Below are positions 16,926 through 25,531 of a stretch of DNA of 64,000 nt, piece after piece. Source of the DNA: Candidatus Omnitrophota bacterium (lineage in GTDB: Bacteria; Omnitrophota; Gorgyraeia; JAFGHF01); NCBI GenBank assembly GCA_020341815.1, contig CP070837.1, positions 628,211 to 692,210 of the forward strand, in the 5' to 3' direction. The translations under genes were made by a program, and so were the position numbers. Numbering within the stretch: the stretch's first letter is position 1; the number at the start of each line of letters is the position of its first letter. Below the pieces are notes generated by a model that made no database searches, was not told the DNA's origin, and was given only the letters and a program-made list of their open reading frames with translations.

Positions 16926-19064
16926 TTATTGCTTCTTCAACAATGTTATCTTAAAACTTGTCCCCTTGCCGGGGGTGCTTTTGACTTCAACGCTGCCATG
17001 ATGGTCATCAACAATCTTTTTCACAATGGCTAAGCCTAATCCCGAGCCTTTATGCTTATAGGTAATAAAAGGGTCAAAGACGGTATTAATCTTATCTCTG
17101 GAGATGCCGCATCCGGTGTCAACAATCTCTACAGCCACCTGATCGCTGCGACTCTTCTGGGCCTTGATAGTCAATTTTTTGGTTTGCGACTCCTCCATAG
17201 CATCAATGCTGTTAGAAATAAGATTGGAAAAAAGCTCCATTAATTGTTCTCTATCGGCCTCAATGTCGCTATCTAAAGACTTGTATTGCTTTTTCAATTG
17301 GATCTTTGCCTTTCTCATGCTTACATCTTCCTGGGTAAGGACTTCATCCAAAAGAACATCCAGCTTTACCCGGGAAAAGTGCGGCTGGGGATGTCCGACA
17401 TAATGAAGAGCGCGCTCAATCAGGCGGTTAATCCTGTCTATGCCTTCCAGGGCACTGCCGTAAAAGCGGCCGGTAAATTCCGCATCAAGCTTGGCCATCT
17501 TGGCAAACTCACGGGGATACTTCACCGGCAAAATCTGCAGGAAGGTCTTCAGCGGCACTAAAGGATTTTTTATGTCGTGAGCCATACGCATTGCCGCCTT
17601 GCCCAATCCTACATAGCGCTTTTCACTGGAAATCTTATCAACGGCCTTGATGTATTCGGTGGTTAAAGCAACCTGATTAGCCAGGGCAAGAAGCGATTGC
17701 AAGTCTTCTTCCGTAAACATATCCTTAGTCCTTTTATTGCCTAAGGCCAGGATGCCGGCTAAATCATCTTTAACCATTAGAGGGATGCAGAGCTCGGCAC
17801 CCAGAGAATCAAATTGTTTTTTCATCAAATCCCTATCCTCTATAGACACCTTATCTATTCTTTCCAACTCGTCTTTCAGGATGGGTTCAGGCCTGCTCTT
17901 TAAGAAACCGACCAAACCAGAGTTTTCATCAATTTTAACCCTGGAAAGTATATCTTTGTCTAATCCGAAAGAGGTCAAAACGAGATAAGCCTCTTCCGCT
18001 TCATCATACACCAATAAAGAAAGCTTATCTATCATCATTGCATTTCTTATCTTTGTCAAAATATAATCCCCCAACTGCTCCAGATCAAGCATAGTGGGAA
18101 TTTTCTTTGCGGCCTCGATTAACTCCTGCTGGTAATCGTATTTTCCGCCAAAGACGGCCCTGCGGGCAAGCTCAATAGCCCTGATTTTCATCTGCGGCAG
18201 GACGTAAATCAAGGCACAAAGCGCTCCGATAAACAAAAGCGCATGCGCTACTATAGGATTATATTGAGCAACGCCCCCGAAAAACCTGTCTATCACAACC
18301 ATCAAACCAATATATGTCCCGGCAATAATCGTAGTGAGCGCGCCATAAGCAAGGCTGCGGGTAATGATTACATTGATATCCATCAGGCGGTAGGCAAAAA
18401 TAGCATAAGTAACTACTATAGGGAATACAGGAACTCCGTAAGTAGCAAATGGGTTATAGGGATATAATTCTATGTTGAAAAATGGTAAATAATTACTTGC
18501 GCCGCAAAGGTATCCAATCAATGCTCCCCAAAATACATATTTTAGCTGGTTGCGCCTGGCGCCGGTAGATAATGAACAAGCCTTAAACAACTCAAAGAGT
18601 CCATACATTACAATCATCCACCATATAACAAGATGATATGGGTAAATAATTCCTGTCGCTCCCCAATAGTAGCGGAAAGAAAACTTAGCAACCGGAGGCG
18701 GGGTAAGAAGGTTGGTAAAATTAAATATTAAAGATATGACTGAGAATAGATAGAAACTACTTAGAACATGCCTGCGTTTCTTCCCTGTAATCCCTAAAAA
18801 TACATACACAAAATGGACAAAAGTAGGGCCGATAAAGATTATACCTGCATAAATTAATCGTGCTAGAAATAAAGCTATAGCATCATTTGGAGCAATAATT
18901 AAACGGGATTCACCGAAACTCCAAATAGTTACGGTTAAGACCCAAAGAGTAAAAGTCTGGTTTACATCTCTTTTTCTATTATTAAAATAGACAAAGACAG
19001 CCACACAAAAGAATGTAAAGGCCGTTATCGATAATGAAGCTACATAATGGTCTAAAATAGTCAT
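16926..19064 (-). CDS. sensor histidine kinase with N-terminal multi-pass membrane (7TM-like) sensor region, HisKA and HATPase_c domains
   Basis: About 7 hydrophobic helices in the first 300 aa. H-box MAHDIKNPL. C-terminal G-boxes GCGISRD and GSGLGL. Its start overlaps the upstream stop codon. Confidence 0.85.
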   Translation of the reverse strand: MTILDHYVASLSITAFTFFCVAVFVYFNNRKRDVNQTFTLWVLTVTIWSFGESRLIIAPNDAIALFLARLIYAGIIFIGPTFVHFVYVFLGITGKKRRHVLSSFYLFSVISLIFNFTNLLTPPPVAKFSFRYYWGATGIIYPYHLVIWWMIVMYGLFELFKACSLSTGARRNQLKYVFWGALIGYLCGASNYLPFFNIELYPYNPFATYGVPVFPIVVTYAIFAYRLMDINVIITRSLAYGALTTIIAGTYIGLMVVIDRFFGGVAQYNPIVAHALLFIGALCALIYVLPQMKIRAIELARRAVFGGKYDYQQELIEAAKKIPTMLDLEQLGDYILTKIRNAMMIDKLSLLVYDEAEEAYLVLTSFGLDKDILSRVKIDENSGLVGFLKSRPEPILKDELERIDKVSIEDRDLMKKQFDSLGAELCIPLMVKDDLAGILALGNKRTKDMFTEEDLQSLLALANQVALTTEYIKAVDKISSEKRYVGLGKAAMRMAHDIKNPLVPLKTFLQILPVKYPREFAKMAKLDAEFTGRFYGSALEGIDRINRLIERALHYVGHPQPHFSRVKLDVLLDEVLTQEDVSMRKAKIQLKKQYKSLDSDIEADREQLMELFSNLISNSIDAMEESQTKKLTIKAQKSRSDQVAVEIVDTGCGISRDKINTVFDPFITYKHKGSGLGLAIVKKIVDDHHGSVEVKSTPGKGTSFKITLLKKQ

Positions 19065-19849
19065 TACAATTTCTCCTGGCCTATGCTGCCGGCAATAAGC
19101 GCAGCCCCTAAGGCCCCGATAACCTGGGGCTCCTGAGGGATGTTCAATTTTTGACCCAGCTTAGTCTTCAGGGCCTGCACAAAGCCGATATTCTTAGCCA
19201 CCCCGCCCGTGAGGGTAACGGAATCCATAATCTCTATTTTACCCAAAAGACTCATGACTCTCTCAGTGATAGCGTAATGTATTCCTCTGGCAATATTTTC
19301 TCGTGGTGAGCCTTTGGCAATCAGCGAAACAACTTCTGACTCGGCAAAGACTGTGCAGAAACTAGTGATTATTGCTGTGTTTTGAGATTTGAGAGACAGG
19401 TTTCCTAATTCCTCAATGGTAACTTCCAAAGCCTGGGCCATAAGCTCTAAAAAACGGCCTGTTCCGGCGGCACACTTATCATTCATTGCAAAGTCCAGGG
19501 TCTCTCCTTTATCGCTTAGGCTTATTGCCTTACAATCCTGGCCACCGACGTCTAAGACTGTCCTGGTATCGGGAAATTGAAAATATGCGCCTTTGGCGTG
19601 ACAGGTGATTTCAGTAACCTGTTTATGGGCGAAAGGCACATTGATTCGGCCATAACCGGTTGCAACAATGCAATCGAGGTCTTCCACTTTCAATTCAGCC
19701 ATGGCTAAGGCCGCTTCCAGCGACTTTTTTGCTACCTTTAAACTATTTGGACCGGTGCGCAGGATATTGCTTGCCAAAATCCTCTTGTCACCATTCAAGA
19801 TAACTGTCTCAGTCGATATAGAGCCGATGTCTATTCCTGCGGTAATCAT
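19064..19849 (-). CDS. BadF/BadG/BcrA/BcrD-family ATPase, CoA-substrate-specific enzyme activase (HgdC-like archerase)
   Basis: Actin-fold ATPase (GIDIGSISTE) with cluster-bridging Cys (CAAGTGRF). Confidence 0.85.
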   Translation of the reverse strand: MITAGIDIGSISTETVILNGDKRILASNILRTGPNSLKVAKKSLEAALAMAELKVEDLDCIVATGYGRINVPFAHKQVTEITCHAKGAYFQFPDTRTVLDVGGQDCKAISLSDKGETLDFAMNDKCAAGTGRFLELMAQALEVTIEELGNLSLKSQNTAIITSFCTVFAESEVVSLIAKGSPRENIARGIHYAITERVMSLLGKIEIMDSVTLTGGVAKNIGFVQALKTKLGQKLNIPQEPQVIGALGAALIAGSIGQEKL

Positions 19850-24488: not shown

Positions 24489-24514
24489 AGCACAGCGCCT
24501 CCTTTTTGTAATAT

Positions 24515-25531
24515 CTAAAGCATCTCCAAAAATGCCTGCACCCGTGTCTTTACCTGACCTGAGCCGCATAAACTGCCATCGCTCTCAAGGAACAATAGCG
24601 GTATCTTTCTATGCCTCAACTCCTTCCTTAAGTAGGGAAATTCAAAGATGTTTGTATCGCAAAACTTCAAGCTATAATAAATAACCCCCTTTATGCTATA
24701 TCCATTAATTATATCCAAAAGATATTCAAGCCGCCTGTTAGAATCCACCATTCTGGCGCAAGGCATTTTTTCAAGGTAATATTCGGCCAAGGCAGCTATA
24801 GGCTCATCATTAATCTCAACCTGACCTTGAAGATATCTAATGCCTGTGCATAAGTCTTCACAAACTACCCTGCCTCCGGATTCTTCCACAATCTTAATCA
24901 ATCCCGCCTCATCTGCATATCCCCCGGAAATCAATATTCTATGCCCCTTATTCTCTGAACTCAACTCTTTAGATTGCACGGCGTTATGATCTTTAAAACC
25001 GGCAAGCAGGGAACTTAATTCTTCGTTAAACTTATTCCTGCAACCCTTCATGCTCTCCTTGACAATGCTTAAGACCTGAGGGCTGGCTAAAGGCAACTTG
25101 TCTTCTTTTCTTAAATTACACAATTGGTCTAATAGCTGCCGGGTCTCATTACAGAGAATTATGGCATCTTTCAATGCCTTCTCTGTTATCTCGACTTTAT
25201 AGTGATTTTCGATAGCTGTAATGAGCTCGCTGAGGCACTTACGGAAATACCTTTTTGAGTCGTTGGTTGCAATCTTAGGAAGGTCCAACAGATAAATAAA
25301 GGGGGTTTTAACATAATGCTGCCAGACATCATATAAGCGTCGCATGGCATCACAGGAGTTAGCTATCACTACTCCGCTTAAAGAGCTATCTTTATTTTCC
25401 AGCCCGATATTTAAGCAATTTAAAACATAAGGGCAAAGATTACTGCATAAATGAGAGGAAGAAAGAGCTGTCGATGCAGAAGTCCCTACAATCCTATAGG
25501 GGTTAAGCCCTGCTGCATAAAAGATCTCCAC
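24515..25531 (-). CDS. 2-hydroxyacyl-CoA dehydratase family subunit (HgdA-like/D-component family)
   Basis: Family-level similarity from the translation. GTG start with a poor RBS, so the start is uncertain. Confidence 0.6.
   Translation of the reverse strand: MEIFYAAGLNPYRIVGTSASTALSSSHLCSNLCPYVLNCLNIGLENKDSSLSGVVIANSCDAMRRLYDVWQHYVKTPFIYLLDLPKIATNDSKRYFRKCLSELITAIENHYKVEITEKALKDAIILCNETRQLLDQLCNLRKEDKLPLASPQVLSIVKESMKGCRNKFNEELSSLLAGFKDHNAVQSKELSSENKGHRILISGGYADEAGLIKIVEESGGRVVCEDLCTGIRYLQGQVEINDEPIAALAEYYLEKMPCARMVDSNRRLEYLLDIINGYSIKGVIYYSLKFCDTNIFEFPYLRKELRHRKIPLLFLESDGSLCGSGQVKTRVQAFLEML

Follow-up and report, generated by a model that had tools for sequence, protein, structure and literature searches.

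What might an ATP-activated radical enzyme of the 2-hydroxyacyl-CoA dehydratase (HGD) type do when its genes are interleaved with those of a carrier protein, an acyl ligase and a radical S-adenosylmethionine (rSAM) enzyme, and are joined to a sensor kinase? The question is raised by a locus in a 64,000-nucleotide stretch of a Candidatus Omnitrophota metagenome-assembled genome (MAG), the whole of which is referred to below as the window. A first-pass annotation had picked out six genes on one strand, encoding an activase, two HGD-D proteins, an acyl carrier protein (ACP), an AMP-ligase and a B12-rSAM enzyme, and a Pfam scan of the open reading frames (ORFs) of the window bore this out (minus strand, 25594..19064). 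The operon is real, intact and conserved, and it brings known enzyme families together in an arrangement for which the literature searches returned no published account; the sole match on domain names, a paper on Ger/Mss and a preprint, contains the arrangement in neither. As to function, we tentatively favour a system that makes or processes a lipid-like signal and is coupled to a receptor and to the turnover of cyclic di-GMP (c-di-GMP), a reading that we consider possible rather than probable.

Layout and components of the operon

In the direction of transcription the enzyme genes begin with HGD1, a BzdN/DCCP-like subunit (24515..25594, called from a GTG at 25531; Pfam HGD-D, 278.6 bits), and a 195-aa fusion of a PilZ domain to an ACP (23901..24488, with a longer ORF from 24569; PilZ 31.3 bits, PP-binding 53.6 bits). 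These are followed by a putative class-B rSAM enzyme with B12-binding, Radical_SAM and DUF4070 domains (22594..23904), an adenylate-forming ligase of the acyl-ACP/CoA ligase type (21056..22585; AMP-binding, 233 bits), HGD2, a BzdO/HadB-like catalytic subunit (19846..21090; HGD-D, 247 bits), and an HgdC-type ATP-dependent activase of 261 aa with a single ATPase domain (19064..19849; BcrAD_BadFG, 211 bits). Three regulatory genes on the same strand complete the unit: a sensor kinase of HisKA_7TM-GAF-HisKA-HATPase architecture (16926..19064), a sigma54-dependent response regulator with Response_reg, Sigma54_activat and HTH_8 domains, i.e. a receiver, an AAA+ domain and a Fis helix-turn-helix (HTH) (15482..16900), and, counted as its third regulator, a receiver-HD-GYP response regulator (14281..15258; HD_5 137 bits, Response_reg 102 bits).

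From PilZ-ACP to the kinase the reading frames are tightly packed. The ACP and rSAM genes overlap by 4 nt, the rSAM and ligase genes are 8 nt apart, and the ligase/HGD2, HGD2/activase and activase/kinase pairs overlap by 35, 4 and 1 nt. The set had been described as overlapping its own kinase/sigma54 regulator. The kinase start does overlap the activase stop, with base 19064 common to both, and coupling and conservation alike tie the kinase to the operon; the sigma54 regulator, in contrast, lies beyond a 25-nt gap after the kinase, and the sole exact sigma54 promoter precedes the HD-GYP gene rather than the enzyme genes. The list of six genes stands, but the c-di-GMP layer, i.e. the PilZ domain on the ACP and the HD-GYP regulator, had been overlooked.

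HGD1, taken with its in-frame extension, could be aligned end to end with BzdN (8s02_B, 136 bits), DCCP (6eno_A, 121 bits) and HadC (112 bits), and HGD2 was aligned with BzdO (89 bits) and HadB (86 bits). The [8Fe-9S] ligands of BzdN are Cys36/73/100/263/293/327 and the [4Fe-4S] ligands of BzdO are Cys95/128/380; Glu65 and His131 are located at the water ligand (PMC11971306). HGD1 has Cys at 6/6 of the BzdN double-cubane ligand positions, and all six cluster Cys also align with those of DCCP. In HGD2, Cys107, Cys135 and Cys360 correspond to BzdO Cys95, 128 and 380, and Glu78 and Trp57 are equivalent to Glu65 and Trp46, whereas the position of the catalytic His131 is occupied by Gly137, with a conserved Asp beside the second Cys; the three Cys and the Glu of a BzdNO-type site are kept and the Glu65/His131 acid-base pair is incomplete. 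The activase scored above the TIGR00241 cut-off (278 against 125 bits) and contains both bridging-cluster Cys motifs (NDKCAAGTG and SFCTVFAESE). The Fe-S ligands of the dehydratase-like ORFs are thus kept, six in HGD1 and three in HGD2, and together with the intact gene set and both activase motifs they uphold the proposal of a three-component ATP-activated radical enzyme.

The first cluster Cys of HGD1 is codon 17 of the extension at 25594..25532 ('WFCSY') and lies upstream of the called GTG, so HGD1 must begin upstream of that codon. Given that no ATG, GTG or TTG is present between the stop TAA and this Cys, the start is either non-canonical or damaged; an ATA at 25591, 8 nt after AAGGAG, is the likely start. 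At this position the Logan assembly of a run containing the sequence (contig L001; loci are named L### and relative proteins P###) gave an identical reading. The public annotation starts HGD1 at GTG 25531, and the resulting 338-aa product drops one predicted [8Fe-9S] ligand. Related sequences were examined for the same ligands. Among 74 aligned HGD1-type sequences (the window and 73 collected, one of which is the window's own copy in L001) the six-Cys pattern CCCCCC was found in 47 and the variant SCCSCC, in which a Ser-x-x-Ser pattern lacks ligands 1 and 4, in 12, and the signature E..C..CD..C was near-invariant among 62 aligned HGD2-type sequences.

The best NCBIfam match of HGD1 was DCCP NF040772 (206.6 bits, cut-off 350). 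The equivalog scores were 134 bits for HadC (cut-off 700), 117 for HadB (750), 128 for BzdN (454) and 99 for BzdO (449), and those for BcrB/C were also far under their cut-offs. Because every curated equivalog score is far below its cut-off, the pair, as judged by sequence, is intact, belongs to the BCR-I/HAD/DCCP superfamily and forms a separate clade within it. An ordinary amino-acid-fermentation 2-hydroxyacyl-CoA dehydratase that happens to lie near unrelated genes would agree with the Pfam HGD-D and activase matches, and HadBC/HadI and HgdAB/HgdC likewise consist of two HGD-D subunits and a single-domain activator with both bridging-cluster Cys motifs. This explanation is nevertheless largely refuted and is very improbable: besides the low scores (117-134 bits against cut-offs of 700-750 for HadB and HadC), the subunit of beta type has here the six-Cys double-cubane pattern and not the HadC type, no CoA-transferase or 2-hydroxyacid dehydrogenase gene was found between positions 14 and 26 kb of the window, and the HGD genes are interleaved and translationally coupled with those of the ACP, rSAM enzyme and ligase. 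The substrate is probably carrier-bound. The suggestion that this is not such a dehydratase has therefore held up.

Compared with BzdNO (PDB 8S02; PMC11971306), the pair has the same two HGD-D-fold subunits, the six-Cys and three-Cys sites, the equivalents of Trp46 and Glu65, and a BcrAD_BadFG-family ATPase as the expected source of electrons. It differs in the modest similarity (136/89 bits to BzdN/BzdO), in the replacement of His131 by Gly, in having one activase gene (HgdC-like and expected to form a homodimer) instead of a BzdPQ or BcrAD pair, and in its context, which is ACP, ligase and rSAM instead of CoA metabolism, with no benzoate-pathway genes in the window. DCCP/DCCP-R (PDB 6ENO) shares all six cluster Cys with HGD1 and is homodimeric, whereas the window encodes two divergent subunits and the DCCP score is below its cut-off. 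Since reductases (BCR, DCCP) are known to have the double-cubane pattern and dehydratases are not, a reductive role of the HGD pair is favoured over that of a dehydratase.

The rSAM enzyme matched the Pfam domains B12-binding (49.9 bits, cut-off 32.1) and Radical_SAM (57 bits) and contains the CxxxCxxC motif (RGCPRDCEFC). None of the NCBIfam models reached its cut-off on this protein, the scores being 107 bits for HpnJ (cut-off 578), 89 for BchE (481), 75 for the ladderane-type lipid rSAM model TIGR04072 (360) and 71 for HpnR (650), and a sequence search against the PDB was uninformative (best match 35 bits). The AlphaFold2 model (pLDDT 89.9) matched, in this order, AprD4 (TM-score 0.75), MgmA, TsrM, CysS, OxsB and TokK, which places the enzyme in class B by predicted fold, with cobalamin use and methylation as putative properties. 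The reaction type is not fixed by the fold, because CysS and TokK act on pantetheine-linked substrates and AprD4 is a non-cobalamin diol dehydratase. The likeness to CysS and TokK/ThnK lies in the fold class and makes a phosphopantetheine-held substrate plausible, but identity to these enzymes is 13-17% and the best fold match is AprD4. For the ligase, the best NCBIfam match was a long-chain-fatty-acid ligase subfamily (325 bits, cut-off 476).

The carrier protein has the DSL phosphopantetheine site, and its PilZ domain scored above the Pfam cut-off of 22.5 bits. The RxxxR motif is present in the PilZ part and is invariant across the fusions; the second motif, canonically (D/N)xSxxG, reads N-I-G-K-G-G in the window and [DN]-I-[S/G/C]-x-G-G in the fusions. 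The domain may bind c-di-GMP. An exhaustive HMMER search against 1.84 billion cluster representatives listed its 150 best matches, of which about four, besides the query, are PilZ-ACP proteins of full length, and in a word-indexed protein search the query itself was the sole match. One relative (P0242) has the same HTH_17 domain fused N-terminally to PilZ-ACP, and the PilZ subfamily of the window was also found fused to other enzymes. The HD and GYP motifs of the HD-GYP regulator are intact ('LLHDIGK', 'HHHERYDGKGYP'), and its score with the NosR-family exception model was below the cut-off (226 against 400 bits). The PilZ-ACP fusion is rare, and the operon is directly linked to genes predicted to act in c-di-GMP turnover.

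The HD-GYP gene is also the apparent target of the regulatory pair. An exact sigma54 -24/-12 promoter, TGGCACGAAAGTTGCT, is located at 15294..15309 on the minus strand, 36 nt upstream of the HD-GYP start codon and directly preceded by a terminator-like hairpin. It is the only exact match to TGGCAC-N5-TTGCW in the whole window (0.05 expected), and no sigma54 promoter was found before the enzyme genes, where just matches with two mismatches occur, inside genes. As this sole exact promoter precedes the HD-GYP gene, we take that gene to be the visible output of the kinase/sigma54 pair. About 150 bp upstream of the promoter there is a perfect 9+9 palindrome, ACCTGTACA-N4-TGTACAGGT (15459..15480), which could be an enhancer site of the adjacent sigma54 activator. 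Two copies of the pattern TGTACA-Nx-TGTACA are present in the window, against none in the shuffles; the second site, TGTACA-N6-TGTACA at 26542-26559, lies in the promoter region of a Phd/RelE-type gene pair. No cobalamin or c-di-GMP riboswitch was found in or before the cluster with Rfam.

The kinase is PrsK-like over its full length (TIGR02916, 147 bits, below the cut-off of 300), and the sigma54 regulator is AtoC-, NtrC- and PrsR-like, with all scores below the cut-offs (405 against 503 bits for PrsR, TIGR02915). A link to the PEP-CTERM/exosortase system through PrsK/PrsR was considered and rejected, given these scores and the lack of a PEP-CTERM tail in the giant protein encoded downstream.

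Conservation of the operon and of its parts

The closest relatives of the rSAM enzyme, P0122 and P0123 (66% and 64% identity), are on two contigs of JGI sample 3300041085, and it was through the closest rSAM relatives, not through the HGD1 profile, that the conserved six-gene order was located. L170 has the order PilZ-ACP (66% identity), rSAM (64%), ligase (56%), HGD2 (71%), activase (74%) and 7TM-GAF kinase (68%), and L173 follows it as far as HGD2 (73%), where the contig ends; across these contigs the identities are 55-74%. L170 also keeps the overlaps of the window: 1 nt for activase/kinase, 4 nt for ACP/rSAM and for HGD2/activase, and 35 nt for ligase/HGD2. Given the shared order in both contigs and the shared overlaps in L170, the arrangement has survived substantial divergence, and the gene set does recur as a unit elsewhere.

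The closest HGD1 relatives (46-57% identity) are mostly found as an HGD trio, i.e. HGD1, HGD2 and activase, alone with the same kind of kinase. A scan with the HGD1 profile gave an rSAM or ACP seed match beside HGD1 in 0/80 metagenomic HGD1 loci. At the head of the trio loci there is often an HTH_17 gene together with one for a FadL/TodX porin (L008, L009, L091, L092, L118, L148, L156). In the window, an HTH_17/excisionase-type DNA-binding protein of 61 aa is encoded ahead of HGD1 (25656..25841, minus strand; TIGR01764 'excise', 54 bits), with a terminator-like hairpin after the gene; HTH homologues are located upstream in L009, L012, L013 and L091. The window itself has no FadL gene.

Several relatives of the trio are associated with other carrier proteins. 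In L002 a nonribosomal peptide synthetase (NRPS) product contains Condensation, AMP-binding and PP-binding domains followed by an HGD-D domain 38% identical to HGD2, with an activase and an HGD1-type gene nearby, and in L005, L006 and L116 the trio directly follows NRPS genes. L090 has the order ketosynthase (KS), ACP, HGD1, HGD2, activase and 7TM kinase, and its ACP is an unrelated one. The SCCSCC variants of HGD1 include all NRPS-linked loci and the KS-ACP-linked L090; in L002:1-2914, L005:1-11122 and L116 an NRPS carrier domain precedes or is fused to HGD-D and is accompanied by an activase and an SCCSCC second subunit. No published description of such an NRPS-HGD tailoring arrangement was found in the literature searched. 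The fusion of a peptidyl carrier protein (PCP) domain to HGD-D in L002, the NRPS neighbours in L005 and L116 and the KS-ACP pair in L090 make the earlier idea of chemistry on a carrier-tethered thioester plausible; this clade can probably act on carrier-held thioesters, and the window enzyme may do so as well.

The other part of the operon has a wider distribution. The rSAM family gave 4435 matches at E<1e-20, and a scan with one genome per species returned 80 loci; neighbours were read by tblastn and Pfam in the 23 loci with an rSAM match of at least 43% identity. A kinase was the next gene in 14/23 of these loci, and relatives below about 43% rSAM identity lack ligase, ACP and sensor neighbours. 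The ligase, ACP and rSAM genes stand directly beside a gene for a polytopic sensor kinase or a 7TM-GAF-HD-GYP protein in Omnitrophota (L010-13, L032, L171), Nitrospirota (L174), Spirochaetes (L014, L018, L021-23, L026-27), Eubacteriales (L017, L019) and Bacteroidales (L033). The Bacteroidales layout was read in L033; L034 and L068, which are truncated or were not followed that far, have the same ligase-rSAM core. A proteobacterial relative of the rSAM enzyme, P0155, was set aside since its gene context is unrelated.

The enzyme that accompanies this cassette varies between the phyla. In the Omnitrophota loci L011-13 and L171 the genes are HTH_17, FadL, ACP (PilZ-ACP in L011), ligase, NAD_binding_4 thioester reductase and one or two rSAM, and the ligases, which adjoin the ACP and the thioester reductase, are 43-47% identical to that of the window. 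The Omnitrophota sensors are 7TM-GAF kinases accompanied by receiver and GAF-HD-GYP genes; L171 has instead one 7TM-GAF-HD-GYP protein. The Nitrospirota locus (L174:6586-12997, MAG GCA_035490495.1) contains ACP, thioester reductase, rSAM, ligase and 7TM-GAF kinase genes; this island, the cleanest self-contained cassette, sits between ammonium transporter and P-II genes.

In Spirochaetes and Eubacteriales the ligase, ACP and rSAM genes, in that order, come after the gene for a large protein (about 1170 aa) and before one for a hybrid sensor consisting of a six-transmembrane segment, kinase, receiver and HD-GYP domains. The large protein (L017:2423-5968; also L014, L018, L020 and L023) has a pair of PilZ domains at its N-terminus and a BioC-like methyltransferase at its C-terminus, besides an alpha/beta-hydrolase segment; about 450 central residues have no Pfam match. 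In Bacteroidales (L033:7053-14173, from a MAG) ACP, ligase, an alpha-oxoamine synthase of the BioF/SPT/CqsA family, rSAM and a 7TMR-DISM hybrid kinase are preceded by efflux genes of RND/HlyD type. The constant parts, as read from these sequences, are thus the ligase, ACP, rSAM enzyme and polytopic sensor, and the variable part appears to be an off-loading or tailoring enzyme of biosynthetic type (thioester reductase, alpha-oxoamine synthase, or hydrolase with methyltransferase). Receiver-HD-GYP or GAF-HD-GYP genes orthologous to that of the window follow the rSAM cassette in four phyla, and c-di-GMP parts recur with varied partners, as PilZ-ACP, PilZx2-hydrolase-methyltransferase, GGDEF-NHL and HD-GYP.

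Long Bacillota operons (L025 of Ruminiclostridium cellobioparum, L028 of Paenibacillus haidiansis, and L029-31) encode a second rSAM enzyme, a fused HGD-D pair, an activase, a further HGD-D protein, an enoyl-CoA hydratase (ECH), a short-chain dehydrogenase/reductase, a GGDEF-NHL protein, an alpha/beta-hydrolase, an rSAM enzyme of the window type, an acyltransferase (AT), ABC-2 exporter components and an ACP. In these Firmicute operons the rSAM family and the HGD/activase set are combined with ACP, AT, ketoreductase (KR), ECH and an ABC-2 exporter.

Taken together, these loci suggest that two modules have merged in the operon, each of which is found elsewhere beside a polytopic sensor. The rSAM and ligase genes (21056-23904) have GC contents of 0.33 and 0.37 (GC3 0.26 and 0.34), well below the window mean of 0.445, whereas HGD2 and the activase have 0.43 and 0.47 (GC3 0.43 and 0.49), and the same trend was seen in L170. 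This composition suggests that the rSAM/ligase cassette is foreign and has not yet drifted to the composition of its host. The window kinase is 68% identical to that of L170, 30-45% identical to kinases of HGD-only loci (L008, L090-92, L156) and 23-26% identical to those of cassette-only loci. Given the lower GC content of the cassette and the closeness of the kinase to those of the HGD-only loci, the most parsimonious account is that an HGD1-HGD2-activase-kinase operon received a PilZ-ACP/rSAM/ligase cassette by insertion.

Such an insertion could also mean that the modules are mere neighbours and that the HGD enzyme acts on an unrelated CoA ester or free small molecule, in the manner of DCCP. 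The difference in composition, the kinase identities, and the trio with kinase but without the cassette in L008, L009, L090-92 and L156 all fit this explanation. On the other hand, the merged order and the overlapping stop and start codons are kept down to 55-74% identity in three lineages, both families are combined again in the Firmicute operons, and HGD relatives repeatedly have a carrier protein as neighbour or fusion partner; we therefore regard mere adjacency as unlikely.

The FadL/TodX genes at the head of L008, L009, L012, L013, L118, L148 and L171 raise another explanation, in which a hydrophobic acid is taken up by FadL/TodX, sensed by the kinase, activated by the ligase and anaerobically reduced or dehydrated in a catabolic or detoxifying route similar to tod or bzd. 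The likeness of the HGD pair to BzdNO would agree with this. However, activation on an ACP, partners such as thioester reductase and alpha-oxoamine synthase, and PilZ/HD-GYP outputs are foreign to catabolic operons, the window has neither a FadL gene nor beta-oxidation or ring-cleavage genes downstream, and the catalytic His131 of BzdO is not conserved. A catabolic role is accordingly improbable.

Proposed function

The lipid-like signal circuit was ranked first, ahead of membrane-lipid remodelling, mere adjacency of the modules, catabolism of an imported acid and, last, a fermentation dehydratase, because the constant ligase, ACP, rSAM enzyme and sensor, the variable tailoring enzyme and the recurrent c-di-GMP parts amount to the layout of a synthase beside its receptor. 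The Rpf and Cqs systems offer a comparison. In the Rpf/diffusible signal factor (DSF) system the RpfB ligase, RpfF, which acts on acyl-ACP, the kinase RpfC and the receiver-HD-GYP protein RpfG are encoded at one locus, and in CqsA/CqsS and LqsA/LqsS a synthase that uses an acyl thioester adjoins a sensor kinase with multiple transmembrane segments.

The operon would work like Rpf/DSF in combining acyl chemistry on an ACP, an acyl ligase, a polytopic kinase and a receiver-HD-GYP protein that lowers c-di-GMP. It differs in having radical enzymes in place of the crotonase-type RpfF, a PilZ domain on the ACP and a sigma54 step; no crotonase (ECH) domain was found in the window cluster by Pfam, and an ECH gene is present in the Firmicute variant only. 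The likeness to Cqs and Lqs lies in the Bacteroidales cassette, whose enzyme is from the same alpha-oxoamine synthase family. Its match to the CqsA-type model is, however, weak (92 against 428 bits), the window has no alpha-oxoamine synthase, and the rSAM enzyme and ACP belong to the window and not to Cqs or Lqs.

In the mechanism that we propose, the ligase would attach a hydrophobic carboxylic acid to the ACP through the phosphopantetheine arm, and the class-B rSAM enzyme would alter the tethered chain by C-methylation, or by rearrangement or dehydration. The BzdNO-like heterodimer would draw ATP-energised low-potential electrons from the HgdC-type activase; the six-Cys double-cubane site of HGD1 may store these electrons and hand them on, and the open-site [4Fe-4S] cluster of HGD2 could then make a ketyl radical on the thioester carbonyl, leading to reduction or alpha-elimination, of which the double-cubane pattern favours the former. 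The product would be a lipid-like small molecule, and this product or an imported precursor would be what the coupled 7TM-GAF kinase senses. Phosphorylated by the kinase, the sigma54 regulator would fire the exact sigma54 promoter of the receiver-HD-GYP gene; the HD-GYP enzyme would lower c-di-GMP, and the PilZ domain on the ACP may read c-di-GMP and thereby gate the pathway.

Several points weigh against this circuit. No experimental work or literature on any member of the family was found, and none of the genes in the operon is an obvious candidate for off-loading. ACP, ligase and rSAM are absent from most of the loci with HGD genes and kinase (L008, L009, L091, L092, L156), and the HGD enzyme would thus need no carrier encoded in its cluster. 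The synteny of sensor and enzymes with FadL also fits a catabolic operon layout. Furthermore, HGD1 has no canonical start codon, the second PilZ motif has Gly at the canonical Ser position, and the closest fold to that of the rSAM enzyme is AprD4, a diol dehydratase without cobalamin; B12 use and methylation are putative.

The same genes could instead serve membrane-lipid remodelling, the main idea of the first-pass annotation. Fatty acids would then be recycled by ligase and ACP and their chains branched or cross-linked by the rSAM enzyme, a carbonyl would be reduced by the HGD enzyme as in Ger/PlsA, and the kinase would, like DesK, sense the state of the membrane. Enzymes of the rSAM class, both class-B and others, are known lipid modifiers (PMC13459092; bioRxiv 10.1101/2023.10.20.563219), and Ger, an enzyme of the HGD superfamily, reduces an ester carbonyl (PMC13159169). 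A thioester reductase takes part in the Omnitrophota and Nitrospirota cassettes where the window has HGD genes around the cassette, and the sensors are of the polytopic intramembrane type. We consider this explanation rather unlikely, though, given that the conserved set lacks a glycerol-phosphate acyltransferase, a KS or any other lipid-assembly gene, that genes of mobile type and a terminator-like hairpin lie between plsY/pgsA and the cluster, and that the exporters, alpha-oxoamine synthase and c-di-GMP parts of the variants fit a released small molecule better. The rSAM enzyme also scored low with lipid-modifying types (75 bits against 360 for the ladderane-type model and 71-107 bits for the hopanoid models).

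The PlsA/PlsR and Ger enzymes, which had been put forward as precedents, are alike in having a BcrAD_BadFG ATPase and HGD-D-like parts and in acting anaerobically on a lipid acyl carbonyl. Their architecture is a different one. Ger comprises two BcrAD_BadFG domains and DUF2229 in one large protein (PMC13159169), and PlsA/Ger proteins carry two ATPase domains, DUF2229 and short HGD-D pieces in a single chain, whereas the window encodes separate full-length subunits: a single-domain 261-aa activase and two full-length HGD-D proteins, with no match to DUF2229 (PF09989) at E<0.01. On this architecture, membership in the group is not supported.

The signal circuit can be extended to the whole cassette family. 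In this broader form, which taken as a whole appears doubtful, the ligase, ACP and class-B rSAM enzyme together with an interchangeable off-loading enzyme would act as the synthase for a so far unrecognised class of signals derived from lipids in at least five phyla, the adjacent polytopic sensor would be the cognate receptor, the output would be c-di-GMP hydrolysis, and the PilZ domain would close the loop, since through it c-di-GMP could gate the carrier protein. The off-loading enzyme would be a thioester reductase, an alpha-oxoamine synthase, a hydrolase with methyltransferase or, in the window, the ATP-driven double-cubane radical reductase. If so, such systems could control attachment in host-dependent Omnitrophota, a giant FG-GAP surface protein being encoded directly downstream. 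Something of this breadth would become credible should the pairs of cassette and sensor turn out to form a family of signalling systems, and the cross-phylum ligase/ACP/rSAM/sensor cassette is a candidate for a new family of signal synthases and receptors in poorly studied anaerobes (Omnitrophota, Nitrospirota, Spirochaetes, Bacteroidales, Clostridia).

Should the proposed circuit be correct, ATP-driven ketyl-radical enzymology as in BCR, HAD and DCCP would extend from CoA esters to carrier-bound substrates, an idea that the PCP-HGD fusions and KS-ACP-HGD loci make directly testable. It would likewise provide a pathway context for DCCP-like double-cubane proteins, whose physiological role is open, and the PilZ domain on an ACP would represent a new kind of c-di-GMP effector, in which the second messenger acts on a carrier protein.

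Flanking genes

Upstream of the HTH gene are the Phd/RelE-type pair (26560..26014) and a nucleotidyltransferase gene, followed by plsY, a CDP-alcohol phosphatidyltransferase gene, lepB and lepA, and beyond lepA by the trp operon, hisD, alaS and htrA. The phospholipid genes plsY and pgsA had been cited as functional context for the cluster. Their proximity is coincidental, as the toxin-antitoxin pair, the nucleotidyltransferase gene, the HTH gene and a terminator-like hairpin intervene; a functional link to plsY/pgsA was ruled out by this gene layout, and they are ordinary housekeeping neighbours outside the unit. The nucleotidyltransferase gene between the cluster and plsY is of the Polbeta type (26586-27107) and is accompanied by a 124-aa ORF without family match (27289-27663); L171 has a similar nucleotidyltransferase/HEPN pair close to its cassette.

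Downstream of the HD-GYP gene there is an 81-aa ORF with a signal peptide (14034-14279) and then the gene for the giant surface protein (5104-13953; 2949 aa), which has FG-GAP/Ig domains (FG-GAP/Glucodextranase_B/Big_7), no PEP-CTERM tail and a strong sigma70-like promoter of its own (13991..13963). It is possible that the two are adhesion genes controlled by c-di-GMP. Elsewhere in the window, Rfam identified a tmRNA at 60858-61266 on the minus strand (170 bits), a tRNA at 61874-61957 on the plus strand and one sub-threshold small RNA match.

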